A stretch of DNA of 64,000 bases from positions 1-64,000 of the forward strand of contig CAWIBO010000002.1 in assembly GCA_963834385.1 (NCBI GenBank), given 5' to 3'. The notes beneath the pieces are model-generated. The model was not told the origin of the DNA. It saw only the letters and a list, made by a program, of their open reading frames with translations, and made no database searches. Positions 4,381 through 57,452 of this stretch are shown one piece after another (the first letter of the stretch is position 1; each line of letters starts with the position of its first letter). The DNA comes from an uncultured Verrucomicrobiae bacterium (GTDB lineage: Bacteria; Verrucomicrobiota; Verrucomicrobiia; Chthoniobacterales; UBA10450). Both the position numbers and the translations under genes were made by a program.

Positions 4381-5166
4381 ATGACAAGTTCTCCCGTCTT
4401 TTCGCGCCCTCTCTTCGTCTGCCTAAGCCTTTTTGCGGCCTTGATCCTCCCGGCGGCAGCGCAGGTCTCCAGCATTAACCCGGTGGCTGACTCCTTTGTT
4501 ACTCCCGGATCGGATGGAAGTTTGGGGGGCAATAATTACGGCGCGGCGGGCATCATGGGTCTCGCGCCGGCCGGAAAGACGCAGGGCGAATTCCAAAGTC
4601 TGTTGCGTTTCGATCTGGCCGCGACCAAAGCCGCCTTTGACGCCCAGTTTGGCGTCGGCCAATGGACGCTGGCCTCCGTGACCCTGCAATTGACCGCCGC
4701 GCCCGCCAACAACGCCATCCTGAACGAACCAAGCGCGGGCAGTTTTGCGGCCTCATGGATGCAGAACGACTCCTGGGTGGAGGGAACCGGGAACCCGAAT
4801 ACGCCGACGACCACTGGCATTACCTTTGACACGCTCTCCTCCTTCCTCGGCGGCGGGGATGAGGCTCTTGGGACCTTTGCCTACAGTGGCGCGACCAGCG
4901 GAGCGACCATTTACACGCTTTCCCTGACGTCGGGGTTTGGCGCTGATCTGGCGGCGGGGAACCTGGTGAGCCTGCGCCTTCACGCCGCCGACTCGAATGT
5001 CAGTTACCTGTTTAACACCCGCAATTTCAACACGGCGGCGAGTCGGCCGGTCCTGACGGTGACGGCGGTGCCGGAGCCGGGAATATGGTTTCTGCTGGGG
5101 AGCGGGGTTTTCCTGGTGGCGGTGGCCGCTTTAAAGCGCTGGAGACTGGATACTTGGAAAGCGTAG
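4381..5166 (+). CDS. DNRLRE-domain protein with PEP-CTERM sorting signal
   Basis: ADSFV...NYG...SLLRFDL...RPVLTV, then VPEP, a hydrophobic helix and basic KRWR. Confidence 0.88.
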   Translation: MTSSPVFSRPLFVCLSLFAALILPAAAQVSSINPVADSFVTPGSDGSLGGNNYGAAGIMGLAPAGKTQGEFQSLLRFDLAATKAAFDAQFGVGQWTLASVTLQLTAAPANNAILNEPSAGSFAASWMQNDSWVEGTGNPNTPTTTGITFDTLSSFLGGGDEALGTFAYSGATSGATIYTLSLTSGFGADLAAGNLVSLRLHAADSNVSYLFNTRNFNTAASRPVLTVTAVPEPGIWFLLGSGVFLVAVAALKRWRLDTWKA

Positions 5167-40325: not shown

Positions 40326-40772
40326 TCAGGCGGCGCCGAGCAGAGCCGGCCGGTTCTGGCGCGCGGCAGTCTGGCGGGCCCGCTGCTGGGCGGTGGCGAG
40401 CACGCGGGAAAGAACGCAGTAAAGCTGCTCGACCGGAAGATTTTTGCTCACGTAACCGTTGGCACCGGCGCGGAGCGCCTCGTGCATCCGGTTCTCGTCG
40501 TAGCCGACCCCGGTGAAAACGATGATGGGAAGCTGCGGCTGCACCTCGCGGATGAAGGAGATGAGGGCGATCCCGTCGACCTTGGGCATTCTCAGGTCGA
40601 CGATGGCGACTTCGCAATCGTGGAACTCGAGCCAGGAAGCGGTCTGGAACCCCTCGGTGAGCGATTCGCAGGTGTGACCTTTTTGGCGGAGGTAGGTGAC
40701 GAGGAACTTCGCGATGGCGGGGTCGTCGTCGATGATGAGGAAATCTGCGCGGTCGCGGTCGAGGATTTTCAT
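40326..40772 (-). CDS. Single-domain response regulator (REC)
   Basis: IIDDD, IVDLRMPKVDG, FTG, GANGYVSK; start 40772 fits the upstream sigma54 motif (alternative start 40793). Confidence 0.88.
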   Translation of the reverse strand: MKILDRDRADFLIIDDDPAIAKFLVTYLRQKGHTCESLTEGFQTASWLEFHDCEVAIVDLRMPKVDGIALISFIREVQPQLPIIVFTGVGYDENRMHEALRAGANGYVSKNLPVEQLYCVLSRVLATAQQRARQTAARQNRPALLGAA

Positions 40773-40794
40773 GTGGCGTGTTATAATTTCCATA

Positions 40795-42226: not shown

Positions 42227-43183
42227 CTATTTTTGGCCAAGACTGGCGCGGAGGGCGTCGAGCTGGCCCGCGGAACCAAGCTTCCCGTTCTTGTGCGCGA
42301 TGAAATCAGCGTAGGCCTGCATGAAAATCTTGCCGGGCGGCCGGAAATCGAACTCGGCAGGTTTGTCCCGGAAAAATTCGCGATGCACCCGGGTCCAGAC
42401 GAGCCGGCCATCGGTGTCGATATTGACCTTGGTGACGCCGAGTTTGGCGGCGGGCAGATATTCCTCCTCGTTCACGCCCCGCGCGCTCGGGTCGAGTTGG
42501 CCGCCCGCTTCGTTGATGCGTTTGACCTCCTCGACCGGAACGCTGGAGCTGCCATGCATGACGATCGGCATCCCGGGACATTTTTGGGAGATCGCCTCGA
42601 TGACATCGAACCGGAGCGACTGCTGGCCCTTGAACTTGTAGGCGCCGTGGCTGGTGCCAATGGCTGCGGCCAGGGAATCGCAGCCGGAGCGCTTTACAAA
42701 TTCCACCGCCTCCTCCGGGTTGGTCAGGCAGGCGTGGCCCTCGTCCACCTTGATGTCTTCCTCGACCCCGCCCAGCATGCCGAGCTCGGCCTCAACGCTG
42801 ACGCCCTTCGCGTGCGCGCGGTCCACGACCCGTTTGGTGATGGCGATGTTCTCCTCGAAGGATTCGTGGCTGGCGTCGATCATGACCGAGCTGTAGAACC
42901 CCGAGTCGATGCAATCGTAGCATGTCTCCTCGTCCCCGTGATCGAGATGCACGGCAAAAATGGCCTCCGGAAAGATCTCCTCGGCGGTGCGGATGATGGC
43001 CTCGAGCATGCGTTTGTCCGTATATTTCCGGGCGCCCTTGGAGAGCTGGATGATGAACGGCGCCTTGCTCTGGATGCAGCCGCGGAAAAGGCCCATGGTC
43101 TGCTCGAGGTTGTTGATGTTATAGGCGCCGACCGCGAATTTTTTGTAGGCGACTTTGTAAAGCTGGTTGGTGGTAACGATCAT
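42227..43183 (-). CDS. fba: Class II fructose-bisphosphate aldolase
   Basis: VHLDHG, SSVMIDASH, EAELG, GTSHGAYKF, VMHGSS, KVNIDTD. Confidence 0.93.
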   Translation of the reverse strand: MIVTTNQLYKVAYKKFAVGAYNINNLEQTMGLFRGCIQSKAPFIIQLSKGARKYTDKRMLEAIIRTAEEIFPEAIFAVHLDHGDEETCYDCIDSGFYSSVMIDASHESFEENIAITKRVVDRAHAKGVSVEAELGMLGGVEEDIKVDEGHACLTNPEEAVEFVKRSGCDSLAAAIGTSHGAYKFKGQQSLRFDVIEAISQKCPGMPIVMHGSSSVPVEEVKRINEAGGQLDPSARGVNEEEYLPAAKLGVTKVNIDTDGRLVWTRVHREFFRDKPAEFDFRPPGKIFMQAYADFIAHKNGKLGSAGQLDALRASLGQK

Positions 43184-43282
43184 TGGTTGATGCTGGTTGA
43201 AGTGCCGGTGCCGGCAGGCGGGATCCCGGCCTCCCTGGCAGGGGATTCTAGAAGCGAATCCGCGAAAGCAAAAATCGAAAAA

Positions 43283-45286
43283 TCAGTGACCGTTGCTCTG
43301 CAGGGGCAGAACCACGGTAACCCGCGTGCCGCGCGGGTTGGAGTCGATGTCAACCCGGCCGTTGTGGTCGAAGACAGTCCGTTTCACGATCGGCAGGCCG
43401 AGGCCCATGCCGCGGGCCTTGGTGGTGCAGAAGGGTGAGAAGACCTTTTCCTTCATGTCCGGTGCGATCCCGCGACCATTATCCTGCACGGTCACGGCCA
43501 CGCCGCTGGTCTCATCGCCTTCGCGGATTGGTTTGGCGGCCAGGGTGACCTGCGGTTTCTGCTGCCCGGTGGTGGCCTCGGCCGCGTTGGTCACAAGGTG
43601 GGCAAAGGCCTCGGTCAGGGCGGTTTCATCGCCCATGACGGAGGGGAGATTCTGCGGCAGCGACGTTTCAATGGGCATGCCGTTGCCGGCAAGACGCTGG
43701 CGGGCGAGGTCAACCGCCTTGCGTACGGCCGCGCCAAGGTCCACCGGCTTGATGATCAGCTCGGGCGGGTGGGCGAAGTTGTTGATCTGGGTGATGATCT
43801 TGTCGAGCCGGTCGATCTCCTGCACCACGATCTGGTTGAAATCCTTGCGGAAATCGGCGTCGTCGAACCGCTCGGGCAGGAGCTGGGCGAAGGTCTTGAT
43901 CGCGACGAGCGGGTTGCGGATTTCGTGCGACATGCTGGCCGCGAGATCAGTCCAGAAAGTGGCGCGGTCGAGCAGGTCCTGTTTTTGCCGGAGGCTCTCC
44001 TCCGCGGTGAGATCATGGATGACCGCGACGGCGCCGAGCGGGGTGCGCTGGTCCGAGAGTTTGCGGGTCTCGGCCTGGAGGGATTTCTGGGAATTGCGCT
44101 CGACCCACTGGCGTGGGGGCAGGGTGGACTTGCCATCGAGGGTATCGCGGAGGAACCCGGCCAAAAACGTCCCGAGTGCTTCGACCGGACGATTCAGAAC
44201 GTCGTTGGGGGACAATCCGAGCATTTGCTCCGCGGTCGGGTTAAACCAGCGGACCACGCCGTCCTCGTCGGTGGCGACGATGCCGGGTGGGATCGACTTG
44301 AGCAGCGTTTCGGCGAGCGTTTTCTGGAGGGTGATTTCCTCGTAGAGCAGGGCGTTCTCGAGAACGGTGGAAACGTGCTCGGCCAGGATGGTGAGGCCCT
44401 CGAGGTCGTTGTAATCGAACGGCTGGCCGGTGACGCGATGGCCGAAAAAGAGCCAGCCGATGATGCGGCCCCGGGCGTAAAGGGGGACGATGACCTCGGC
44501 GCCGAAGGTGTCGAGGGCGCGTCGCTGCAGAGCGCGCTGGGAGGGATCGACCGCGTGGGCGAGGTTGGCGCGGCAGATCAGGTGGGCATGGAGCTCGAAC
44601 CAGCGAACGAGCGGGTCGCGCTCGCCGAACTCGATCTCGTAGGTCTCCGGCAGGCAGCGAAGTCCCGCCCGGAGGCGATAGCGGTCGCCCTGACGAATGC
44701 GCGAGAAGATGCCGACCCGCGTGACCGTGGCGGCGTCCGCCACGCTCTCGACCACGCTGGCGAGGAGCGCGTCGACATTGTCGAACCGACGGAAAACGCG
44801 CGGGAAGCGCATGATGGGAAGAGAAGGGCTGCTGAACCGGTCGGGCAACCGCTCGAGGGGGCGGGCAGGCACGGGCACAGGCGCGAGGGTCGATTGCTCG
44901 CGCAGATCGCGATTCTCCTGTTTGACCCGGAGGAAATCAAAAGCGCGACCGACCAGGGCCTGGAACCGGCGGCGGTCGAGCTGGAGATCTTCCACCGCGT
45001 AGATGCCGCTCTGTTCGGCCTCGCGCAGCGGATCGGAGCGGGGCGTGCCGAGCGCCGTGATGAGCACATCGGGCCACTCCTGCTGGACCTGGTCGAGCAG
45101 GTCGCGCGAATCCTTTGCCCGCAGGTCGAGGAGGAGCAGGGCCGGGGTGGTCTGTTGCAGCACGCTGTCCAGGCGGTCGGCGTCGGCCACGTGGCGGATC
45201 TCGGCCACGGAACGCAGGAAAGCCTTCACCCGGCGGGCGAGATCGGCATCCTGAGTATAGAGAACGACCGCGGGAGTGGGGATCAT
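43283..45286 (-). CDS. Cytoplasmic histidine kinase: degenerate REC, GAF, PAS, HisKA, HATPase
   Basis: SMSHEIRNPL, LVTNAAEA, DNGRGI, FSPFCTTK, GMGLGL; ATGA overlap with the upstream kinase. Confidence 0.9.
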   Translation of the reverse strand: MIPTPAVVLYTQDADLARRVKAFLRSVAEIRHVADADRLDSVLQQTTPALLLLDLRAKDSRDLLDQVQQEWPDVLITALGTPRSDPLREAEQSGIYAVEDLQLDRRRFQALVGRAFDFLRVKQENRDLREQSTLAPVPVPARPLERLPDRFSSPSLPIMRFPRVFRRFDNVDALLASVVESVADAATVTRVGIFSRIRQGDRYRLRAGLRCLPETYEIEFGERDPLVRWFELHAHLICRANLAHAVDPSQRALQRRALDTFGAEVIVPLYARGRIIGWLFFGHRVTGQPFDYNDLEGLTILAEHVSTVLENALLYEEITLQKTLAETLLKSIPPGIVATDEDGVVRWFNPTAEQMLGLSPNDVLNRPVEALGTFLAGFLRDTLDGKSTLPPRQWVERNSQKSLQAETRKLSDQRTPLGAVAVIHDLTAEESLRQKQDLLDRATFWTDLAASMSHEIRNPLVAIKTFAQLLPERFDDADFRKDFNQIVVQEIDRLDKIITQINNFAHPPELIIKPVDLGAAVRKAVDLARQRLAGNGMPIETSLPQNLPSVMGDETALTEAFAHLVTNAAEATTGQQKPQVTLAAKPIREGDETSGVAVTVQDNGRGIAPDMKEKVFSPFCTTKARGMGLGLPIVKRTVFDHNGRVDIDSNPRGTRVTVVLPLQSNGH

Positions 45287-47811
45287 GCCGCGGCTACTTC
45301 GCTCTCAAAACGCACCAGCGGAAGAAGAATATGAAAAGCGGTGCCTTTTTTCACCTCGCTCTCGACCTCGATCTGGCCGCCGTGTTCCTGGATGATCCCG
45401 TGCACCACCGAGAGGCCGAGGCCGGTCCCGTAGTCCTTGGTCGTGAAGAACGGGTCAAAAACCTGTCCGATGTCCTCGGGGCGGATCCCCTCGCCGCTGT
45501 CGCGGATGGTGACGCGCAGGATTTCCTGGGTGCTGCCGTTCGTTCGGGAAAGGGCGGAGACGACATGGTCATCGCGGGTGATGCGCGTGCTCACGGCGAG
45601 TTCGCCGCCTGTGCCCATAGCGTCCATGGCGTTGATGAAGAAATTTAGAAAGACCTGCTCCAGCTGGTCAGCGTCGGCGCGGATTGTATCAACTTCCGCC
45701 TGCCATGCCCGCGTTAATTTAATATCTTTTTGGTAGAGGCGATGGCCGACGAGCTGGAGCGATTTCTCGAGCGTCTCGTGGACGTGCATCGGTTTGAGGA
45801 GGGGCTTGGCCGGGCGGGCGAAGCGGAGGAGTTGGTTGACCAGGCTGTCAATGCGGTCGATTTCGTGCCCGATCAGGTTGGAAAAGGTCTCGCGGAAATC
45901 GGAATCCTGGTAACGCTCCGGGAGAAGCTGGGCAAAGGTCTTGATCGAGACGAGGGGGTTCTTGATCTCGTGGGCCATCCCGGCGGAGAGCGTGCCAAGG
46001 CTGGCCAGACGGTCGCTCCGCCGGATCTGCAACTCGAGCTGCTTGAGCGCGGAAATATCGGTCAGCACCAGCAAGGCGCCCAGGGTGGCGCCATCCTCGT
46101 CGCGGAAGATGGAGCTGCTGGCCCGGACAATGCGCGGCCGGCTGCCATCGCCGACGCGCATCTCCGGGTCCTCCTTGCGTTCGCCCGTCTGGAGGGTGGC
46201 GAGGAGCATGCGGCAGAGGTCGGCCGGCAGCCGGTCGATTTCCTGGCCGAGAATGTCAGCGGCGTTCAGCCCGGTGATGAGCTCGGCTTCGTGGTTGAAA
46301 ACGGTGACCTGCTGCTGGGCATCGGCGGCAATGACGCCGGTGGTAAGGTTTTGCAGCAGCGTTTCATTATAAATCTTGGCGTTCTGGACCTCGGTGAAAA
46401 GCTCCGCGTTCTCGATCGCGACGGCGAGCTGTCCGCACAGGACCTGGAGGGCGTTTTGCTCCGGGATCCCGTACATTCGCCCGGAGAGCCGCGGGCCGAG
46501 AACCATGACGCCGGCCAGGTGTTCGCGTGAGGCGATCGGCATGGCGATGGCGACCTGGAGCCCCTCCATCAGGGCGGCCACGCGCCGCAGCTGCGGGGTG
46601 AGACGAATACGACGCAGTTCCTCGAGCACGAGCGGTTCCCGGGTCTCTTCCAGTTGCTGAACGAGCGGGCTCTCCCGGTCGAACTCGAGCAGATCGCGCT
46701 GCAGCTCGTTTTCCGGGAGGGGATACCGCTGGATGAGGCCACCGCGTGCCGGGAGGAGAATGACGACGCGATCTGTCTTCATGGCCTCGGTGACGGTGGC
46801 GCCGAAGCGTTCCATCAGTTCGCGGAGAGTGCTGACCGAGTTGAGGATGGTGGCGGCCTTGCTCACGGTGGCGCCGAAGTCGAGTTGCCGGCTGCCGACG
46901 AAGAGACGGTCTGCCAGGCGCTGGGAAATGCCGCGGGCCGGGGCCATGGCAAAGGCAACGACGAGAGCGGCGACGATGTGGGCCATTTGTGTCCCCCCCG
47001 ATCCGATGAAAGGGACGAGGGCGGTGGTGACCAGCCACCAGACCGCGCCGTAGAGAGTGAGGAGATAAAGGGTGAGCAGGGCGTAGGAGATCACCCGGCG
47101 AAAGAAAACGCCCACTTCCATGATGCGCCGGGTGGTGATGCCGTAGGCGATGATGAGGCTGAACAGAACGATGCGGAAAGGAGCGAGCCAGTTCAGGAGC
47201 GACTGGTGCACAAAAGGCCGGATGAAAAGGGCCAGGAGAGTCAGGCCGAGGATGACGGCCGTGCCCATGAGGATGAAAGAAAGCTCCGTGCGCTCGCGGC
47301 CGCGGGCGTTCTTGATGTCCCGAACGTAAAGCACCAGGAGCGCGAGCCCGGCGGCGGCGAAATAGATGCTGTAGAGGTAGACGCCGTTTCCGTAGACCGG
47401 AACAGGGGTCAGGTTGGGCGCCCCCTGGGCCTGCGAGAAGACCGTGTCGGCCATGAAGAAAGGAGTCTGGCAGAGGAGAACAATGCCGAGGGCGGCGCCC
47501 AGCCAGTAGCGGGTGCCGAAGAGAAGCTCCCGCCAGCTCTGGTTCGGTCTCTTGATCGAGATCCGGAGGAGATTGAAGGAATAGAGAAGGAAGGCGCCGG
47601 CGGCAGAGGCCTGCCTGATGTAGAACTCGGCAGTGGCGAGATTCTCGGTGATCGAGATCAGGTAAAGGCTGCCCAGCCAGACGGCGATGGTGCTGGAGAG
47701 GACGAGGAAGGTCTGATTGGATTTGCGGCCGGGGCTGGCCTGGAAAACCGCGAAGCCCAGCGCGATCTGGATGATCTGGGCGACAAGGATGGGCGTGGTC
47801 GCAGCGTTCAT
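45283..47811 (-). CDS. Multi-TM sensor histidine kinase (7TM-like, GAF, PAS, HisKA, HATPase; PrsK-like architecture)
   Basis: About 9 hydrophobic segments, AVAIENAELF, MAHEIKNPL, INAMDAM, DSGEGI, FDPFFTTK, GTGLGL. Confidence 0.92.
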   Translation of the reverse strand: MNAATTPILVAQIIQIALGFAVFQASPGRKSNQTFLVLSSTIAVWLGSLYLISITENLATAEFYIRQASAAGAFLLYSFNLLRISIKRPNQSWRELLFGTRYWLGAALGIVLLCQTPFFMADTVFSQAQGAPNLTPVPVYGNGVYLYSIYFAAAGLALLVLYVRDIKNARGRERTELSFILMGTAVILGLTLLALFIRPFVHQSLLNWLAPFRIVLFSLIIAYGITTRRIMEVGVFFRRVISYALLTLYLLTLYGAVWWLVTTALVPFIGSGGTQMAHIVAALVVAFAMAPARGISQRLADRLFVGSRQLDFGATVSKAATILNSVSTLRELMERFGATVTEAMKTDRVVILLPARGGLIQRYPLPENELQRDLLEFDRESPLVQQLEETREPLVLEELRRIRLTPQLRRVAALMEGLQVAIAMPIASREHLAGVMVLGPRLSGRMYGIPEQNALQVLCGQLAVAIENAELFTEVQNAKIYNETLLQNLTTGVIAADAQQQVTVFNHEAELITGLNAADILGQEIDRLPADLCRMLLATLQTGERKEDPEMRVGDGSRPRIVRASSSIFRDEDGATLGALLVLTDISALKQLELQIRRSDRLASLGTLSAGMAHEIKNPLVSIKTFAQLLPERYQDSDFRETFSNLIGHEIDRIDSLVNQLLRFARPAKPLLKPMHVHETLEKSLQLVGHRLYQKDIKLTRAWQAEVDTIRADADQLEQVFLNFFINAMDAMGTGGELAVSTRITRDDHVVSALSRTNGSTQEILRVTIRDSGEGIRPEDIGQVFDPFFTTKDYGTGLGLSVVHGIIQEHGGQIEVESEVKKGTAFHILLPLVRFESEVAAA

Positions 47812-47872
47812 CCGGTGCGGCGTGCGGGCTGGGAGGTGGGAAAACGAGGATCGCGCTCCATACCGTCGCGCG

Positions 47873-49114
47873 TCAGGCCGCCGGGCGAAGAATAATCATG
47901 GTCGCGGCGCTGCCCCCGATGCCGCGCACATTGACCAGGGCGCGGTCGATCCGGGTCCTGCGGGGCCGGTTGGCCACAAAGTTCAAATCGCACTTGGGAT
48001 CGGGGTTTTCGTAGTTGGCGGTGGGCGGGATGAGCTGGTCGCGCATGCTCAAGGCGCAGGCGATCAGCTGGAACGGGCCGCCGGCGGCCATGGCATTGCC
48101 GGTCACACCTTTGATTGAATTGACCGGGATATCGTAGGCGCGCGGCCCGAAAACCTCCTTGATGCTGGCGACTTCCGTTTCATCCAGCACCGGATGGCCC
48201 GGTCCGTAGGCGGAAATATAGTCGATCTGGTTGATATCGAGCCCGCCGTTGGCGAGCGCCAGCTTCATGGAATCGGCCAGGCCCGAGCCGGGCCGGCCGG
48301 CATCGCGGTCGCGTTGTTTTCCGTAACAGCAGATCTCAAAATGGATTTGCGCGCCGCGCGCTTCCGCCCGCGCCAGGTTTTCCAGGATCATGACGCCGGC
48401 GCCTTCCGCCAGGACGCCCGAGTCGCGTTCCAGGTCAAAGGGCCGGCTGGCTTTCTCCGGTTCGTCGTTGCGGCAGGAGCTCAGCCCGCTGGCAATGAAC
48501 ATCGACAGGGCCAGGGGCGTGATCGGGGTGTCCGTTCCCCCCGCGATGGCCACCTCTGCCTCGCCGGAGCGGATCATTTCCGCGGCCGTGGCAACGGCAT
48601 CAAGGCCCGATGGGCAGGCGGAGGAAATCGTGGCGGCATCGGCGCTCAGGCCGATCCGGTCGGCGATCATGTTGGCCGCCGCCTGCGGGATCATATGGGC
48701 CGCCGTGCTGGGGGCAGCCCGGTTGGGGCCCTTTTGCTCGACGTCCTCGAAGGCTTTTTCCAGCACATCAATGGCGCTGGAACTCACCCCGATCACCACC
48801 GGCGTCGGGCTGGGAAAATCGAGGTTCTTGGGATCGTAGCCGGCGTTCTCCAAGGCCATCATGGTGGCGGCAAAAGCGAACTGCGTATGCCGGGCCATGC
48901 GTTTCGGTTTCAGCTCGGGCTCGATGAAGTCCTGCGGATCGAAATTTTTCACCTCGCCCGCGATCCGGCTTTTGAACCCGGTGGTGTCAAAGTGGGTGAT
49001 GGGCGCGATGCCGCTGCGGCCGCTGAGAAGGGAATCCCAGAAAGCCTTCAAACCGATGCCATTTGGGGCGACCACGCCCATCCCGGTCACGACGACACGA
49101 TTTTTTTTTCTCAT
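47873..49114 (-). CDS. FabF-fold beta-ketoacyl synthase-like protein with non-canonical active site (Cys kept; His to Tyr; His to Asn)
   Basis: RVVVTGMGVV, SSACPSG, SRPFD, EGAG, IPPTAN; SAYGPGH and KGVTGNAM at the two His motifs. Confidence 0.88.
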   Translation of the reverse strand: MRKKNRVVVTGMGVVAPNGIGLKAFWDSLLSGRSGIAPITHFDTTGFKSRIAGEVKNFDPQDFIEPELKPKRMARHTQFAFAATMMALENAGYDPKNLDFPSPTPVVIGVSSSAIDVLEKAFEDVEQKGPNRAAPSTAAHMIPQAAANMIADRIGLSADAATISSACPSGLDAVATAAEMIRSGEAEVAIAGGTDTPITPLALSMFIASGLSSCRNDEPEKASRPFDLERDSGVLAEGAGVMILENLARAEARGAQIHFEICCYGKQRDRDAGRPGSGLADSMKLALANGGLDINQIDYISAYGPGHPVLDETEVASIKEVFGPRAYDIPVNSIKGVTGNAMAAGGPFQLIACALSMRDQLIPPTANYENPDPKCDLNFVANRPRRTRIDRALVNVRGIGGSAATMIILRPAA

Positions 49115-49180
49115 GGAGTTATCGGTCCCGTTTCTTCTCACAACTGAATGCCCGGGGAGGAAGGTTTTTTAATGGTTATG

Positions 49181-49250
49181 TAATTTCTGGTAATTTCGGG
49201 AGACTTCTGCGTCGCCCACTGTTATTCACCAAATTTGAGAGTTATTCACA
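49181..49250. promoter_or_regulatory. Two direct-repeat pairs in an AT-rich divergent promoter region
   Basis: TAATTTCTGG-TAATTTCGGG (49181-49200); GTTATTCAC at 49221 and 49241. Confidence 0.45.
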
Positions 49251-49252
49251 AG

Positions 49253-49270
49253 TTGCATCTTGCGTGCCGG
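49253..49270 (-). promoter_or_regulatory. Putative sigma54 (-24/-12) promoter for the ketosynthase-kinase operon
   Basis: Minus strand CCGGCACGCAAGATGCAA: GGCACG and TGCA with GG-N10-GC spacing. Confidence 0.62.
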
Positions 49271-49376
49271 AACAATTTGTTTCACCCTCGGGCCCGCCGC
49301 CACTCCTCGATTTCCGCTCCTCCCGTAAATCGTTCGTTGTCGGGCACAACCTTAGCTCTATCCCTGCCTCGCACCC

Positions 49377-50531
49377 ATGATCGCTTCTCCTGATCTGCCG
49401 CAGGTCCTTGTCATCGACGATGAAATAGGCCCCCGCGAGAGCCTGCGCATGCTTCTCAAGCCCAGTTACCGCGTCCACACCGCCGAATGCGTCGCCGACG
49501 GTGTCCGTCTTCTCCAGGAAAAAAAACCTGATGCCGTCATCACCGATATCCGCATGCCCGGCGTGAGCGGCATCGACGGCCTGCGCCAGATCCGCGAGAT
49601 CGACCCGCATGTCTCGGTCATCATGCTGACCGGGTTCGGCGCCCTGGAAACGGCGCAGGAGGCGCTTCGGCTCGGGGCCAACGATTATATCAGCAAGCCG
49701 TTCGACGCCCGCGAAATGCGCGAGGTCATCAGCCGCAACGTCGAGCGCACCCGGGTGCACCGCGCGGGGGAGAACGCCGCCCTGGAAATCCGCGGATTAA
49801 ACGATCGCCTCCTCAAAGAGCTGGCCCAGAAAGAACGCCTGGCCTCGCTCGGCCAGGCCTCGGCCGAGTTCGTCCACGATATCAGCAACCCGCTCACCAT
49901 CGTCTGGGGTTACGTCCAACTGCTTGCGCGCAAACTCGAGCAGCAGGAGAAAACCGAGGGCGAATCGGCCGCGTCCGCCCGTGAATTAAATATCATCGAA
50001 CAGAATGTCCGTCTCTGCCGCGACCTCCTGGTCATGTGGCAGAGCTACGGCAGCGAGGAAGCGGCGCCGCACAAGCCCATCTCGGTTTCCTCCATTGTTC
50101 GCGACGTCATCAAGGCCATGGAGGGCATGGCGGCGCAGCACAAAGTGACGCTGACCGGGCAGGTCTGCGAGGAACCGGGCAGCCTCCTGGGCGACGCCGT
50201 CCAGGTCCAGCGCGCCATCCAGAACGTGGTCACCAACGCCGTGCAGGCGGCGGCGGAAAGGGATAATGGCGGCACGGTCTCCGTCTCCTGCCAGCAACGG
50301 GAATTTTACACCGACGTGCGCGTGGAAGATTCCGGCACGGGGATGACCCCGGAACAGATCATCAAAATTTTCGATCCTTACTTCACGACCAAGCAGGGCA
50401 AGAGCGGCACCGGCCTCGGCCTCTACATCACGAAGAAGGTGGTCGATGATCATAACGGTTCGATCAAGGTCGACAGCACGCCGGGTGCGGGCAGCGTTTT
50501 TACCATCCGCCTTCCGCTGCTGAACGCCTGA
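49377..50531 (+). CDS. Hybrid response regulator / histidine kinase (REC, HisKA, HATPase)
   Basis: VIDDE, TDIRMPG, YISKPF; FVHDISNPL, NAVQA, DSGTG, FDPYFTTK, GTGLGL. Confidence 0.93.
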   Translation: MIASPDLPQVLVIDDEIGPRESLRMLLKPSYRVHTAECVADGVRLLQEKKPDAVITDIRMPGVSGIDGLRQIREIDPHVSVIMLTGFGALETAQEALRLGANDYISKPFDAREMREVISRNVERTRVHRAGENAALEIRGLNDRLLKELAQKERLASLGQASAEFVHDISNPLTIVWGYVQLLARKLEQQEKTEGESAASARELNIIEQNVRLCRDLLVMWQSYGSEEAAPHKPISVSSIVRDVIKAMEGMAAQHKVTLTGQVCEEPGSLLGDAVQVQRAIQNVVTNAVQAAAERDNGGTVSVSCQQREFYTDVRVEDSGTGMTPEQIIKIFDPYFTTKQGKSGTGLGLYITKKVVDDHNGSIKVDSTPGAGSVFTIRLPLLNA

Positions 50532-50577
50532 GTCACTTTCGCTTGTCAGCACCGGTCGCATCCGGTTTGTTCGCGAG

Positions 50578-53007
50578 GTGCCCGCCGGTTATTGTGTTGC
50601 ACCTGTTTTCGCCCTTCGCACGACCGGTGTCCCGTTTCGGCACGTAGCCGGCCTGGCCACACCGCGGGCCACGGAGATCGCGCGCGCGCTTCTGACCGCC
50701 CGGGCCGAGCAAGCCCGGCTGCGCAAGGAACTGAACGATCTTTTCGGTCGGCAGGAGTTCCGCATGTCGGGCCCGCCCTTCCAGTTGGCGGTGGCCGTCA
50801 TGCGGGGTCGCGCCTTGACCGTGGCTCCCGGCGTGGTGCTGCCTCCGGCCGTGCCGGCACTGGCGGAGATTTCCGCCCGGATTGCGGAACTGGAGAAACA
50901 ATTCGAGCCGGTTTTGCGTGCGGAGGTGGCGCAGGCGCGCATGGCCCTGCGCCGCTCCTGCCGCGACGTTCTCCCCGATTACCTGATTTTCGGCGCGGGC
51001 GATATTCGGCGCGAAGTGGCCGAACTGGGGATCGAGGAAGTCGGCGGCGAGCTTCCCGCCCGCAATTCCAAGGAACGCGCGCGCGAGCGGCACCTCCTTC
51101 TCTATCTGCAGCGTCTCTGCGGCAAGAACGACACTTTCAGCCGGTTCGGTCCGTCAACCTGGGGTCGGCTGGATGAAACGGTCACAGGCGTCCGCTTTGA
51201 ACCGAGTGCCGGCATCGATGAACGTCATCTCCTTCTTGAACGCTGGACGGCCCATCTCCTGGCACGCGCCCTGAACGCTGATCCCGCCGCGCGCCGCCAG
51301 TTTTGTCCGCGGCTCCACCCGAACGGCCGGATCGAGGGGAACGAGTTCGTCTTCATCGAGGACAACCGGCGCGTGCCGCTGTCGCCTGCGCTGCGCGAGC
51401 TGCTCGACCAGTGTGACGGGCAAACGCCGGCGCAGGGGCTGGAGGCCGGGCTGCCACAACTGGAGGAGTTGGTGGACCTCGGTGTTCTTCTTTTGGGAGC
51501 CGAGGTGCCCGCGCTGGAAGCGAACGCTTTTGGCGTGCTGGTGCAGGATATCGCCGCGTGGCCGGCCGGCGAGGTTCGCACCGGCTGGCTCGACCGGGCG
51601 GAACGGCTGGGCCGGCTGCCGGCCGAGTTTGGCGCCAGCACGGCGATTGCGCACCGCGTGACGGTGATGAACGAAGCGCGCCGGCTTCTTGGTGAACTGG
51701 GCGAAACCGAAGCGCTGGGGCAGCGGGCGCTCTACAAGGCGGCCAACCCAATTCTCGAGGAGTGCGCCCGGTTCTCCCAATTCCATCTTGGCGTGGAGGC
51801 GGCGGCCGCGCTCACCCGCGAGGGCCGGCCCTGGCTTGACCTTTGGCGCGACACCTATGCCTTTGTCGCGAGCCGCCTTGCCCAGGCCCTGCGCCATCTC
51901 CACCAGTCGGCGCCCCGGCACGACGGTGCGGTGGCCTGGCCGGCGTTCCTGGCCCATTGCGCGCGGCAGAACATGCCGCTCACCGGTCATGGCCTGGTGG
52001 CCCCGGGGCACGTGGCGTTCCAGGAGGTAAAAGGGGCATTCCGCAGGGCCCTGGAAGAGCGTGCGGGAGAGGCCGAGGTGGAACTCACGGCGGAAGATTG
52101 CGCGATTGTGCGCCGCAGTTTTTCGTTCCCCGCCTTCGACGAATACACTTATCCGTCGGCAGACCTGCAGATTGCGGCGCGCTCCTTCGAGGCCATGGCG
52201 CGGGGCGAATACCAATGGATCATCGCGGAACTGCATCCGGCGGTGGCCCTGCTGCACCACGGGCTTTTTTGGAGCTGCCCGGAGAAGGAGGTGCTGGCCG
52301 GGGCGCTGCGGGCCACCACCTTTGGGCAACCGAGTCCGCATTACGGATTTCACGCGGCCGATTTTACGGCGCACACGACGGTGCACCTGATGGAAGCGCT
52401 GGGAGAACAGAGCGTGTTTGTCGCGCCGCAGCGCGGGCGGCCGGAGTGGAACCCGATCCCGCCCGCGGAGGTGGAGGTGGTGGTGCAGGAGGAGAGCGGC
52501 GACGTGGTCCTGCGCCAGCGCGGCACGGGGCGTCATCTTGGTTCGCTGGCCCGGAACTGGTTGATTCCGCTTGGTTTTCATCCGTTCCATTTCGGGCGGA
52601 CGCCGCACATGCCGCGTTTGCGCTGCGGGAACGTGATCGTGCAGCGCCGTTCCTGGACGGTGAAGCTCGAGGAGCTGGCCCCGGGCAATCATGCCGGCAT
52701 CTCGCCCGCGCTCGTCTCAGCGGTGGAGTCGCTCCGGGCGGAGAAAGGCTGGCCCCGGCACATTTACATTCGGCCGACCGAGCAGGCGCTCCGGCGGAGT
52801 GGAGCGGAGGGGCGCGACAAGGACACCAAGCCGGTCTACGTGGATCTCGAGAGCTACCTTTTCCTGGAAATCTTCCATCGTTGGCTGACGAAGGCGGGCG
52901 AACTGGAAGTGACCGAGATGCTGCCGGACCCCGAACATCTGTGCTGGCAGGAACCGGGTGGAAATCACACCTTTGAGATCCGCACCCTTATTGTGCCGGA
53001 AACATGA
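50578..53007 (+). CDS. Stand-alone lantibiotic-dehydratase N-terminal domain protein (small LanB / PEARL-like peptide aminoacyl-tRNA ligase)
   Basis: YLQRLCGKNDTFSRFGP, SADLQIAA, IAELHP, HMPRL...QRRSW, KPVYVDLES, TEMLPDPEH...FEIR; ends without an elimination domain. Confidence 0.8.
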   Translation: MPAGYCVAPVFALRTTGVPFRHVAGLATPRATEIARALLTARAEQARLRKELNDLFGRQEFRMSGPPFQLAVAVMRGRALTVAPGVVLPPAVPALAEISARIAELEKQFEPVLRAEVAQARMALRRSCRDVLPDYLIFGAGDIRREVAELGIEEVGGELPARNSKERARERHLLLYLQRLCGKNDTFSRFGPSTWGRLDETVTGVRFEPSAGIDERHLLLERWTAHLLARALNADPAARRQFCPRLHPNGRIEGNEFVFIEDNRRVPLSPALRELLDQCDGQTPAQGLEAGLPQLEELVDLGVLLLGAEVPALEANAFGVLVQDIAAWPAGEVRTGWLDRAERLGRLPAEFGASTAIAHRVTVMNEARRLLGELGETEALGQRALYKAANPILEECARFSQFHLGVEAAAALTREGRPWLDLWRDTYAFVASRLAQALRHLHQSAPRHDGAVAWPAFLAHCARQNMPLTGHGLVAPGHVAFQEVKGAFRRALEERAGEAEVELTAEDCAIVRRSFSFPAFDEYTYPSADLQIAARSFEAMARGEYQWIIAELHPAVALLHHGLFWSCPEKEVLAGALRATTFGQPSPHYGFHAADFTAHTTVHLMEALGEQSVFVAPQRGRPEWNPIPPAEVEVVVQEESGDVVLRQRGTGRHLGSLARNWLIPLGFHPFHFGRTPHMPRLRCGNVIVQRRSWTVKLEELAPGNHAGISPALVSAVESLRAEKGWPRHIYIRPTEQALRRSGAEGRDKDTKPVYVDLESYLFLEIFHRWLTKAGELEVTEMLPDPEHLCWQEPGGNHTFEIRTLIVPET

Positions 53008-53786
53008 AGATCATCGCCATCGCCAACCAGAAAGGGGGAGTGGGTAAAACCACCACCGCGGTCAACCTGAGCGTGGCGCTCGGCGAAGTGGGCCAGCGCG
53101 TTCTCCTGATCGATCTCGATCCGCAGGGCAACGCCACCAGTTCCTTTGGTCTGCAGGAAATCGAGGGCGAAAGCCTTTACGACCCGATCCTTGGCCAGGC
53201 TCGCCTGGCGGACAAGATCGTGCCCACGCGGCATGGGAACGTTTTCATGATCACGGCCGACCTCGACCTCGCGGGAGCGGAGATCGAGATCGCCCGGATG
53301 CCGGATCACCTCACGCGGCTGCGGGAAGCGATGGAACCGCTGCGCCGGGATGCCACCTTCGACTTCGTCTTTCTCGATTGTCCGCCCTCGCTCGGCATTC
53401 TGATGACGAACGCGCTCGCGGCCGCGGACGAGCTGCTCACCCCGATCCAGTGCGAATACTTCGCGCTCGAGGGCCTGGTGAAAATTGTGCGCGTGGTGGA
53501 ACAGGTGCGCGATTCCGGGGCGAATCCCGGGGTGCGGATCAATGGGATCGTCATGACCATGTTCGACAGCCGGACCAATCTGAGCGGGCAGGTGGTGGAC
53601 GAAGTGCGCCAGCATTTTGGCGAACAAATCTACAGCACCATCATTCCCCGCAGCGTCCGCCTGAGTGAGGCGCCCAGTTTCGGCAAGTCGGTGCTCGAGC
53701 ATGATCCGACCGGCCCGGGTGCGCGGGCTTACCGGGCGCTGGCGGCGGAGTTCTGGGAGCGCCAGAAAGGCGGGAAGCGTCGTTAG
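53004..53786 (+). CDS. parA: ParA/Soj-family ATPase
   Basis: NQKGGVGKTTT, DLDPQGNAT, DCPPSLG, PIQCEYFALEGL, IPRSVRLSEAPSFG. Confidence 0.93.
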   Translation: MKIIAIANQKGGVGKTTTAVNLSVALGEVGQRVLLIDLDPQGNATSSFGLQEIEGESLYDPILGQARLADKIVPTRHGNVFMITADLDLAGAEIEIARMPDHLTRLREAMEPLRRDATFDFVFLDCPPSLGILMTNALAAADELLTPIQCEYFALEGLVKIVRVVEQVRDSGANPGVRINGIVMTMFDSRTNLSGQVVDEVRQHFGEQIYSTIIPRSVRLSEAPSFGKSVLEHDPTGPGARAYRALAAEFWERQKGGKRR

Positions 53787-53809
53787 TTGGAGGAAGGGCG
53801 GGCAGGGGG

Positions 53810-54104
53810 CGTGAATGGTGAATGGTGAATGGTGAATCGTGAATAGGCCGGTCGCGCCTTGTCGGTAGGGCGACGCTCCGCGGAGCCTGGGAGCCCGCCG
53901 GGCGAGCGAATCAGCCGTTGCGTCACGATCTGTCATCCCGAGCGCAGCGAGGGACCTCACGAGCAATGTTTGGTGTGGCAGCACCGTTTTCTCCCAGGCT
54001 CGACGGAGTCTCGCCCCACCGGGGGAGGGTGAAGGGTGAATGCCGGGTTTCGCGGAGGGACGAAGCTTCCGCTCGTCCATGGACCTGCGGAAGCAGGTCC
54101 CTCC
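53810..54104. repeat. Mosaic repeat cluster: 7-mers, inverted REP-A pair enclosing a GTCATCCC hairpin, GGAG doublet
   Basis: Modules at 53810-53845, 53863-53894 (inverted), 53932-53958, 53991-54021 and 54054-54104. Confidence 0.88.
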
Positions 54105-54217
54105 GTTGAGTTTTCGCGGCGATTTGATGGGCGGGATTTGCCGAGAGCGGGAACCCGTGCTACGTTCAGTTGAACGTAAAAGGCGTCAGGGATTTTTCGC
54201 CGCGCGTATCAATCACG

Positions 54218-55472
54218 GTGGATTTACAGGGTAAACTCGCAATTCTGGCTGACGCGGCGAAGTACGACGCTTCCTGCGCGAGCAGCGGCACGACCAAACG
54301 CAACGCGCGTGTCTCGGGCGGCCTCGGCTCCACGGTCGGGACCGGGATTTGTCACAGCTACACCCCGGACGGGCGCTGCGTTTCCCTCCTCAAGATTCTT
54401 CTGACCAATTACTGCGTCTACGACTGCCTTTATTGCATCAACCGCGTTTCCAGCGATGTGCCACGGGCCCGTTTTACTCCCGACGAGGTGATCAAGCTGA
54501 CCCTCGATTTTTACCGCCGCAATTATATCGAGGGGCTTTTCCTCAGCTCGGGGATCATTCGCAATCCGGATTACACCATGGAGCAGGTGATCGCCGTGGC
54601 CCGTCGGCTCCGATTGGAACACCAGTTTCGCGGCTATATCCATTTAAAGACGATTCCCGAGGCTTCGCCCGCGCTGATCGAGGAAGCGGGCCGGTGGGCG
54701 GACCGAATCAGCATCAACATTGAGCTGCCGACCCCGGCCGATGTGGCGAGGCTCGCGCCGGAGAAAAGCTTCGAGAACACCCGCAAAGCCATGGGCGGGA
54801 TCCGGGATCGAATTGCCGAGGCGAAAGCGGCACGAAAAGAGACGGCGAAAGCGCCGGCTTTTGCCCCCGCTGGCCAAAGCACGCAAATGATCGTGGGCGC
54901 GACGGAAGCGAGCGACGCCACCATCCTGGAGCAGGCTTCCGATCTCTACGCGAAGCATAAGCTGCGTCGGGTTTATTACTCGGCTTTCAGTCCCATCCCG
55001 AGCGCGTCGAGCAAGCTGCCGTTGATCGCACCACCGTTGGTGCGGGAACACCGGCTTTACCAGGCCGACTGGCTGGTCCGTTTTTATGGGTTCAAACCGG
55101 CGGAGCTGACCACTCCGGAGGCGCAGAAATCTTGATCTGAACATTGATCCAAAACTGGCCTGGGCCCTGCGCCACCAGGCGGAGTTTCCCGTCGACCTGA
55201 ACCGCGCCGCGCGGGAATCGCTCCTGCGTGTGCCGGGGTTGGGCACCAAATCCGTTGAACGGATTTTGCGTCTGCGGCGCTGGCACAAGCTCCGGCTGGA
55301 TGACCTGACTCGTCTGCGTTTGCCGGTGAAGAAGGTTCTGCCTTTTGTCATCACGGCCGATTACCGGCCGGTCACACTCGAAGGGACGGAGCGGGACAGT
55401 TTTCTTTCTCCGCGGCCTGCCCAGATGGATTTGTTCCCGCGCGAAACCTCGGTGGTGACCGGTCAATTATGA
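54218..55472 (+). CDS. Putative DNA modification/repair radical SAM protein with helix-hairpin-helix (TIGR03916-like); one apparent frameshift near 55128
   Basis: AAKYDASCASSG, GICHSYTPDGRC, CVYDCLYC, REHRLYQADWL; continues as LDLNIDPKLAWAL...LLRVPGLG after removing one A. Confidence 0.88.
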
Positions 55473-56900
55473 TCCGGCCCATGGAGCATCTGCTTTTTGC
55501 GCCAGGCTTCGCCGGCTGGCAGCAGGCGGCGCGGGCGGCCCTTTCCCGCGAATTGATCCCGGAGGAGGTGGCCTGGCAGGAACTTGGGGCGGACCAGCCT
55601 GACCTCGCGCTCTTCGAAACGGAGGTCGTCGCAGCGGCGCCCGCGACCACGGCTTTCCGCGTTCCCCGCCGTTTCGTCGAGCTGGCCCGCCTGGTGGCTT
55701 TGCATCGCGAGGAGGCGCGCTGGGGCCTGCTTTACCGGCTCCTTTGGCGAATCACGCATGGTGAACCGCGCCTGCTCGATATTTTCGTGGATCCGGACGT
55801 GAGCCGCGCTTCCGCGCTGCAGAAGGCGGTCCGGCACGACATTCACAAGATGCGGGCGTTTGTCCGGTTTCGCGAGGTGAAGATGGCCGACGGGCCATGG
55901 TTCGTGGCCTGGTTCGAGCCGGAACACCACATCGTCGAACACAACGCGCAGTTCTTTGTCGATCGTTTCGCCTCGATGCGCTGGTCGATCCTGACCCCGG
56001 AACGATGCGCGCACTGGGATGGAAAGGAGTTGTCGATCACCGCCGGGGTGAACAGGAGCGAGGCGCCGCAGGAGGACGAGATCGAGCCGCTCTGGCTCAC
56101 CTATTACGCAAACATCTTTAACCCGGCCCGGGTGAAAGTGCAGGCCATGCAGGCGGAGATGCCGCGGAAGTACTGGCGGAATCTTCCGGAAAGCGAATTG
56201 ATTCCCGCTCTTTTACGCGAGGCCCCGCGAAGAATGGATGAGATGGCGAGGAAAAGCGCGGCCCAAACGGCGGAGGCGGAAGAGTTCTGGTCGCCGGCGC
56301 AGCCGCCCGCGACCTCGAGCTTGAAGAAGATGGAAGAGGCGGCGGCGGCCTGTCGCGCCTGTCACCTTTACAAGCGCGCCACGCAAACGGTCTTCGGCGA
56401 AGGCCCGAAGGAAGCCACCTTTATGCTCCTCGGCGAGCAACCGGGCGACCAGGAGGATTTGGCCGGCAAGCCGTTTGTCGGGCCGGCGGGGAAACTGCTC
56501 GACCGCGCCCTGGTGGAGGCGGGGATCGACCGGGACGAAGTTTACGTCACCAACACGGTCAAACATTTCAAGTGGGAACCGCGCGGCAAGCGGCGTCTGC
56601 ACCAGAAACCGAACTCGCGCGACATTGCCGCCTGTCGTCCGTGGTTCGAGGCGGAGCTGGCCCTGGTGAAACCGAAGCTCCTCATCTGCCTCGGCTCGAC
56701 CGCGGCCCAGGCCATCCTCGGGTCCGGTTTCCGGGTCACGCGTGAACGCGGCAAAGTGCTCGAGTCGCCCCTGGCCCCGCGTGTTCTGGCGACGGTCGCA
56801 TCCCTCCTCGCTCCTGCGCCAGCCTGACGAGGAAGCCCGGGCGCAGGCTTACGCTCTTTTCCTGGATGATCTGCGCGCAGCGGTTGCTGCCGTGGCCTGA
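55469..56900 (+). CDS. DUF4130 fused to UdgX-family uracil-DNA binding protein; one apparent frameshift near 56797
   Basis: HKMRAFVRF, FNPARVK, MPRKYW; then CRAC, GEQPGDQED, KHFKW, KRRLHQKP; HPSSLLR restored by removing one base; stop at 56900. Confidence 0.87.
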
Positions 56901-57379: not shown

Positions 57380-57452
57380 TGGAGGTAAGGGGATTCGAAC
57401 CCCTGGCCTCGTCATTGCGAACGACGCGCTCTACCAACTGAGCTATACCCCC
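57380..57452 (-). tRNA. tRNA-Ala (anticodon CGC), CCA not encoded
   Basis: GGGGGTA/TACCTCC acceptor stem with G3:U70, anticodon arm CGTCG-TT-CGC-AA-TGACG, GGTTCGAATCC. Confidence 0.96.

Follow-up and report, generated by a model that had tools for sequence, protein, structure and literature searches.

What is a ketosynthase doing next to a membrane-bound sensor kinase? This question is raised by a locus in contig CAWIBO010000002.1 of an uncultured Verrucomicrobiae bacterium of the order Chthoniobacterales, of which we analyzed one stretch of 64,000 nucleotides, hereafter the window. The locus holds genes for a ketosynthase (KS), three histidine kinases (HK1, HK2 and HK3), a PEARL-like protein and a ParA-family ATPase, arranged in two divergent arms. 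Its conserved core is the KS, a kinase with seven-transmembrane (7TM), GAF and PAS domains (HK1) and a kinase with an atypical receiver (HK2), facing a third kinase that carries a canonical receiver (REC) domain (HK3). The module is real and conserved, and apparently unpublished; no description of it was found in the literature searched, which did not extend to subscription papers and supplements. The source names of KS homologues likewise point to Chthoniobacterales. The function that we infer, with moderate confidence, is that KS and HK1 form a conserved unit in which a self-made lipid signal is paired with a membrane receptor, resembling Ralstonia phcBSR.

Arrangement and conservation of the locus

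The features of the locus are the following.

43283-45286, minus strand: HK2, 667 aa, with an atypical receiver, GAF, PAS, HisKA and HATPase domains
45283-47811, minus strand: HK1, 842 aa, with a HisKA_7TM-type membrane domain, GAF, PAS, HisKA and HATPase domains
47873-49114, minus strand: KS, 413 aa from an ATG start, with a ketoacyl-synt domain (Pfam)
49222-49230 and 49242-49250, plus strand: a pair of 9-mer direct repeats at a spacing of 20 bp, probably DnaA-box-like
49254-49269, minus strand: sigma54-like site in the divergent gap, facing KS
49342-49357, plus strand: conserved sigma54 -24/-12 site in the divergent gap, facing HK3-PEARL-parA
49377-50531, plus strand: HK3, 384 aa, with a canonical REC and HisKA-HATPase, of PhcR-like architecture
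50578-53007, plus strand: PEARL-like or small LanB protein, 809 aa, with Lant_dehydr_N at E 1.8e-13, family-specific
53004-53786, plus strand: parA, a ParA-family ATPase (AAA_31) overlapping the PEARL stop, a family-specific neighbour

This arrangement agrees with that described by the first-pass annotation: the gene order, the 61 bp between KS and HK1, the ATGA overlap between HK1 and HK2 and the divergent region of 262 bp between KS and HK3 (49115-49376) were all located, and the absence of a DNA-binding response regulator holds, no DNA-binding regulator being found within the locus. On the other arm, HK3 and PEARL are 46 bp apart and PEARL overlaps parA by 4 bases. The 1-kb bin with the divergent gap has 58.9% GC versus 64-65% in both flanking bins. 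HK1 contains 8 hydrophobic segments; the N-terminal receiver of HK2 was not detected by Pfam, and by eye in 52 aligned copies its Asp is present and Lys and one acidic residue are gone.

Within the family (UBA10450), KS orthologues with >50% identity were found in 19/24 genomes, and in 0/16 genomes of other families in the order. HK1 lies next to KS in all 20 family loci fetched, accompanied by HK2 in 19, by HK3 and PEARL in 17 each and by parA in 16, the remainder ending at contig edges. Loci L037 and L050 belong to unpublished genomes (G007 and G002), and one tally includes G014; none of our conclusions rests on them.

A search of the phylum covered 400 genomes, 74 of 401 passing 1e-110, and 40 of the 78 places listed were fetched, including almost every top-ranking one outside the family; weaker matches, among which L090 scored, were left unfetched and may conceal more members. 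Two of the 40 places were plain FabF genes without kinases (L087 and L089) and 38 were clade members, a distant lineage that by source names is Kiritimatiellia. HK1 directly follows KS in 38/38 of these distant loci and HK2 comes next in 34, with HK3 present in 32 and PEARL or parA in none. The kinase of one of them (L058) equals P0123 of Kiritimatiella glycovorans, a cultured organism, and the core is therefore directly testable.

Moreover, a metagenome scan with a KS motif gave 120 loci, 80 of them with flanks and 79 of those with KS; a 7TM kinase stands next to KS in 66 of the 68 having at least 400 bases downstream. The two exceptions are L242, probably a chance match, and L226 (5781-11435), a single case in which a LuxR-type regulator, a fatty-acid desaturase, an FAD (flavin adenine dinucleotide) oxidase and a clade KS are co-directional, with no kinase. 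The linkage of KS to the 7TM kinase, which the first-pass annotation had proposed to follow across relatives, was thus seen in family, distant and metagenome loci alike. As a control set we used 80 mostly unrelated loci from a contig search with the HK1 alignment (generic kinase words), among which KS precedes a 7TM kinase only in L107, a KS in L151 being unlinked. L107 (1449-13650, a Nitrospirota record) is a single case where FadL faces a canonical FabF (546 bits, over the cut-off), followed by an unassigned 345-aa protein and then the same series of three kinase types. The layout varies: KS and HK1 occur alone, at another site, in a single locus (L264), and a third layout reads HK3-(oxidase)-KS-7TM kinase-reduced HK2. 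One family genome (G004) carries two KS-HK1 copies of different subtypes (L042 and L049), plus two PEARL copies.

The ketosynthase and its apparent covariation with the membrane domain

The KS is FabF-like, its best solved relative being 1J3N (39%), and its model (pLDDT 73.6) gave a Foldseek TM of 0.86 to B. subtilis FabF. On the FabF profile TIGR03150 it scored 371 bits, under the cut-off of 493.75; ordinary FabF-type copies are present elsewhere in the window's genome. Residues were compared by the numbering of E. coli FabF (PMC7138838). With FabF (KAS II) the KS shares the fold, the catalytic Cys163 (here Cys167), Lys335, the Asp265 position and the loop 1 glycines, whereas it differs at both His positions (Tyr303 for His303 and Asn340 for His340), at Phe398 (Arg397) and at the Phe400 gate (Ile399), in the loss of the Thr305/307 pair and in a loop 2 that is four residues shorter.

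The Cys/Tyr/Asn/Arg combination is invariant in 21/21 family KS copies, which thus lack the Cys-His-His triad; with Ile, Leu or Met at the Phe400 position and Arg at that of Phe398, they lack the GFGG gate loop of FabF as well. The 38 distant copies have Cys (38), His303 (35), Asn340 (32) and either His397 (36) or Arg397 (2), while a third KS lineage has Trp303. When the family pattern is set against the His303 pattern of the distant copies, the common change is therefore Asn340 plus His/Arg397; among all 59 clade copies Cys is found in 59/59, Asn340 in 53/59 and His or Arg at 397 in 59/59. These 59 kinase-linked sequences formed one clade in a quick tree (SH-aLRT 99).

Ordinary malonyl-ACP elongation by the KS (ACP, acyl carrier protein) is unlikely, by analogy with the His-less KS0 domains, which transfer acyl chains (PMC7327777, PMC7923214). 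Like them the KS keeps the Cys and has lost the first His, and acyl transfer would be expected; unlike them, it is not a domain of a type I assembly line but a free type II protein, and its second His is lost too. As a stand-alone ketosynthase with Asn for the second His and a proposed role as signal maker, it also recalls PpyS, whose Cys-His-Asn triad makes a signal via head-to-head condensation in the PpyS/PluR system (PMC4578411), and DarB; the clade KS of L226, accompanied by a LuxR-type gene, adds to the likeness with PpyS/PluR. However, PpyS was modelled on OleA and keeps His281, whereas the window's KS is FabF-derived with Tyr at the first His; the triad His of PpyS is present in 35/38 distant copies. 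Moreover, the putative receptor is here a membrane kinase. Close kinship with PpyS or DarB, which the first-pass annotation had named as known signal-making ketosynthases, is not supported: the DarB model NF005293 gave 28 bits against 450, and the scaffold is of FabF, not OleA/FabH type.

As for the membrane domain of HK1, HisKA_7TM (PF16927) was matched in 17/26 HK1 members, the window's own copy not among them, and 303 representatives of the 7TM domain score below 1e-30. We compared distances in the 12 of 21 family loci that were complete for all eight parts and, separately, in 30 distant loci. Mean identities in the 12 family loci were 0.475 for the 7TM domain, 0.57 for PEARL, 0.64 for KS, 0.71 for the cytoplasmic part of HK1 and 0.88 for Fba. 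There, KS distance correlated with 7TM distance (Spearman 0.51; partial Mantel 0.49, p 0.005) and not with that of the cytoplasmic part of HK1 (-0.06).

Promoters, partner genes and the PEARL-like protein

The first-pass annotation had placed a sigma54 motif in the region from which both arms start. Sites facing either arm do exist in the gap, but the conserved one, at 49342-49357, faces HK3 and is position-matched in 17/18 family gaps (shuffle mean 0.15, max 3 in 2000), whereas the KS-facing one at 49254-49269 keeps both dinucleotides in 9/18. In the distant loci, the strict sigma54 pattern is directed at the FadL-HK3 arm in 15/35 usable regions and at KS in 2. These patterns indicate a conserved sigma54 promoter predicted to drive the HK3-PEARL arm, not the KS arm; rpoN and five sigma54 activators are encoded in the window's genome. 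A sigma70 scan of 42900-54300 gave 0 sites, with terminators at chance level.

The direct repeats reported earlier are present, and they look like DnaA boxes, fitting the 9-mer consensus. Their 9-mer has 7 occurrences in the window's genome, one of them upstream of dnaA; others lie upstream of genes that we identified by eye (mreB, ksgA, ku and pafA/dop). DnaA-box-like sites were seen upstream of 17/20 family KS genes examined, and only scattered singly in the distant loci. Clusters of such sites at G000:C3:313754 and C2:827619 may mark the replication origin.

Outside the family the locus has further partners. FadL (PF03349) is present in 31/38 distant loci, almost always as first gene of the HK3 arm, and the sigma54 activator that the first-pass annotation had proposed to look for is found there, as a REC-AAA-HTH (helix-turn-helix) protein encoded after HK2 in 17/38. 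In L069 (14946-15524) and L082 (15008-15586) this activator is reduced to receiver and HTH (192 aa), with no AAA domain. The slot behind HK3, examined in 32 distant loci, holds an FAD-linked oxidase in 11 and a SAM (S-adenosylmethionine) methyltransferase in 7, Pfam having been run on 3 oxidases and 4 methyltransferases and the others assigned by similarity. Single distant loci also have O-methyltransferases, B12 radical SAM enzymes and an OlsB-like acyltransferase nearby.

In the window that slot is taken by the PEARL-like gene. PEARL was found in 21/24 family genomes and in 0/16 genomes of other families of the order, the phylum sample giving one weak match only outside the family; in the metagenome loci it accompanies 20/22 Arg-type KS genes and 0/13 others, the corresponding values for FadL being 0/22 and 5/13. 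PEARL and parA are family-specific additions outside the core. The protein has PF04738 as its sole Pfam domain and no elimination domain, as expected of a stand-alone glutamylation-type enzyme, and a profile search matched it to 6EC7 (E 4.2e-7), a single-sequence search of PDB giving no match; its Atlas clusters carry PF04738 at 0.98-0.99, with recognition under the tool's threshold. Y176, R179, K183, K751, E780 and R802 are invariant, and residues were matched to BhaB (PMC11962472) by spacing and position only, not by direct alignment. It resembles PEARLs and the SnaE type (PMC11962472, PMC11212132) in its length of ~800 aa, Lant_dehydr_N as the only domain, a conserved Tyr-x2-Arg helix and a terminal Arg, both putatively equivalent, the absence of an elimination domain and the lack of a visible precursor peptide. 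It differs from them in standing behind a sensor kinase with no nonribosomal peptide synthetase (NRPS), polyketide synthase or scaffold peptide nearby, and its activity is predicted; no scaffold peptide or NRPS was found at the locus, where the spacings are those given above. SnaE shows that PEARL-type enzymes can amidate small-molecule carboxylates (PMC11212132). Whether PEARL is tied to the circuit stands at about even odds, the sole tie being its place in the sigma54-driven enzyme slot.

An Rfam search returned tRNA only. A tRNA-Ala(CGC) gene lies at 57380-57452 (minus strand), 4.4 kb from PEARL, and one was present in 8/14 family loci scanned (L032, L033, L035, L039, L046, L047, L048 and L049); its nearness to PEARL is probably synteny.

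A candidate lipid signal and competing explanations

The explanation that fits best, by analogy, is a circuit working like phcBSRQ and chemically nearest to PpyS, a member of neither. Gene linkage, active-site changes, domain composition and promoter direction are what we observe; the steps that follow are a model built on them. The KS would load an acyl chain on Cys167 and transfer it or condense it head-to-head instead of elongating with malonyl-ACP, since His303, His340 and the Thr305/Thr307 pair are lost. The product might leave the cell or partition into the membrane and be read by the 7TM domain of HK1, FadL, where present, aiding its passage across the outer membrane. The next step would be phosphorylation by HK1 and HK2 of a sigma54 activator, whose gene lies within the locus in the other class and presumably elsewhere in the window's genome; this activator would turn on the HK3 arm in a feedback loop. 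Whichever enzyme follows HK3 (an oxidase, a methyltransferase or, here, PEARL) may modify the signal or its precursor, PEARL perhaps joining an amino acid supplied by aminoacyl-tRNA to a free carboxylate, and the DnaA-like boxes may tie the promoter to replication in the window's family.

The phcBSRQ system of Ralstonia combines synthase, membrane kinase and REC-kinase (PMC8578825). The likeness lies in gene architecture: in both, the known or proposed enzyme for a lipid signal, a membrane-bound sensor kinase and a soluble receiver-kinase lacking a DNA-binding domain are encoded in one locus, with the transcription factor encoded elsewhere. The systems differ in that the Phc synthase is a methyltransferase and the output is through the LysR-type PhcA, whereas here we find a ketosynthase, a HisKA_7TM-GAF-PAS sensor and a sigma54 output.

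Chthoniobacterales are common soil bacteria, and no signalling chemistry was found for them in the literature searched, with the same coverage as above. If the lipid-signal explanation is right, the locus would provide a candidate synthase-receptor pair of a so far undescribed bacterial signalling system in several Verrucomicrobiota lineages including abundant soil forms. In that case the active site (Cys/Asn/His-or-Arg) would be new for a ketosynthase, the orphan HisKA_7TM domain would gain a class of ligand, and there would be a PEARL that works outside the gene clusters of natural products.

A number of results weigh against this explanation. No ACP or acyl-CoA ligase gene is present at the window's locus, the genome's three ACP matches lying elsewhere; FadL is found in 0/20 family loci and not in the window's genome (89.6% complete). 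A linked sigma54 activator is likewise found in 0/20 family loci, and none of the five activators of the window's genome was an orthologue of the linked one above order-wide background. The KS-7TM correlation rests on 12 related genomes, and the two parts are adjacent, so that shared recombination alone could yield it; in the 30 distant loci KS follows the cytoplasmic part no less than the 7TM domain (partial 0.27 vs 0.20), and L038 and L040 offer a counter-example, having the 7TM type of L046 and L048 with a different KS type. PEARL distance follows parA (0.65) and HK3 (0.58) and not 7TM (0.14), and G011 retains a PEARL next to which the KS match contains stops. The residue at position 303 is not fixed (His, Tyr, Trp or Asn), which is also compatible with a binding protein of relaxed catalysis. 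Finally, in the family the fba, lpxD and NYN flanks show the same degree of synteny as the module, and family linkage alone therefore proves little.

The main rival explanation makes the KS a non-catalytic or single-turnover acyl-binding subunit, whose Cys would capture acyl-ACP, acyl-CoA or a fatty acid taken up from outside and which would act on HK1 through contact, as a co-sensor of lipid status that makes no signal. We regard it as possible, if on the doubtful side. The alteration of both His residues, the Thr pair and the Phe gate, with position 303 free to vary, agrees with it, as does the lack of ACP in the locus; FadL and the FAD oxidase on the sigma54 arm would suit uptake and breakdown of outside lipid, and covariation of KS and 7TM suits contact equally with product-receptor matching. 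Nevertheless, the conserved Asn340 and His/Arg397 substitutions suggest a rebuilt site, a canonical FabF can occupy the same place (L107), and in L226 a clade KS is accompanied by desaturase and oxidase but not by a kinase.

An extension of the lipid-signal explanation, which we consider unlikely, is a cell-cell signalling system of Verrucomicrobiota's own, used also by a large soil family: the FabF-derived KS with its new active site would make a lineage-specific lipid signal, KS and 7TM would form a specificity cassette that changes together, in the window's family PEARL, under sigma54 feedback, would attach an amino acid carried by tRNA either to the lipid or to one of the relay proteins, and DnaA would link the system to replication. 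If true, it would mean new autoinducer chemistry and the first regulatory role for a PEARL.

Quite unlikely, in our judgement, is that the kinases are mainly a relay of cell cycle or differentiation (AtoS/CtcB-type with sigma54), the KS giving an internal membrane-lipid cue and not a cell-cell signal. The DnaA-box-like repeats in 17/20 family upstream regions, their 9-mer being found also before dnaA, and the joining of parA to the HK3 arm in 16/20 family loci agree with such a relay; the best NCBIfam match is AtoS, under its cut-off, and chlamydial sigma54 reportedly works in developmental conversion. By contrast, parA is found in 0/38 distant loci, where the DnaA-like boxes are scattered, and FadL with the variable tailoring enzymes points to a small molecule crossing the envelope. 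A replication-linked relay can be compatible with the lipid-signal explanation and may overlap with acyl binding as well.

A PrsK-type role for HK1, with control of PEP-CTERM and EPS (exopolysaccharide) genes as the first-pass annotation had supposed, is very improbable. HK1 does begin with 7TM and GAF domains before the kinase as in PrsK/PrsR, a sigma54 output would be shared, and the genome encodes rpoN and five sigma54 activators and gives eight PEP-CTERM matches. However, HK1 reached 75 bits on TIGR02916 (cut-off 300), through the kinase core only, and the genome has no protein above that cut-off; a link to PEP-CTERM genes was not seen, none of these or of exosortase genes being noted in the fetched loci, which were not searched by family. 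The PEP-CTERM gene earlier reported in the window probably corresponds to 4381-5166, 38 kb away, where a PEP-CTERM-like tail is visible by eye and Pfam gave no match. That the genes are chance neighbours held by general synteny is scarcely credible: inside the family, conservation of the housekeeping flanks matches that of the module, but beyond it KS-HK1-HK2 is retained between other flanks and in three layouts. For the core this explanation is already refuted; for PEARL and parA it may hold.

Some neighbouring features complete the description. The conserved Ala-rich C-terminus of HK1 was considered as a degron or PEARL substrate and set aside because the same stretch encodes the HK2 ribosome site and the ATGA overlap, and it is not kept outside the family. 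Adjoining parA, at 54170-56827, are a radical SAM gene and a fusion of DUF4130 and uracil-DNA glycosylase. A single-domain receiver at 40326-40775 (minus strand) is syntenic across the family and has a conserved Ala-rich C-terminus, which by eye is similar to ClpX degrons and PEARL substrate tails.

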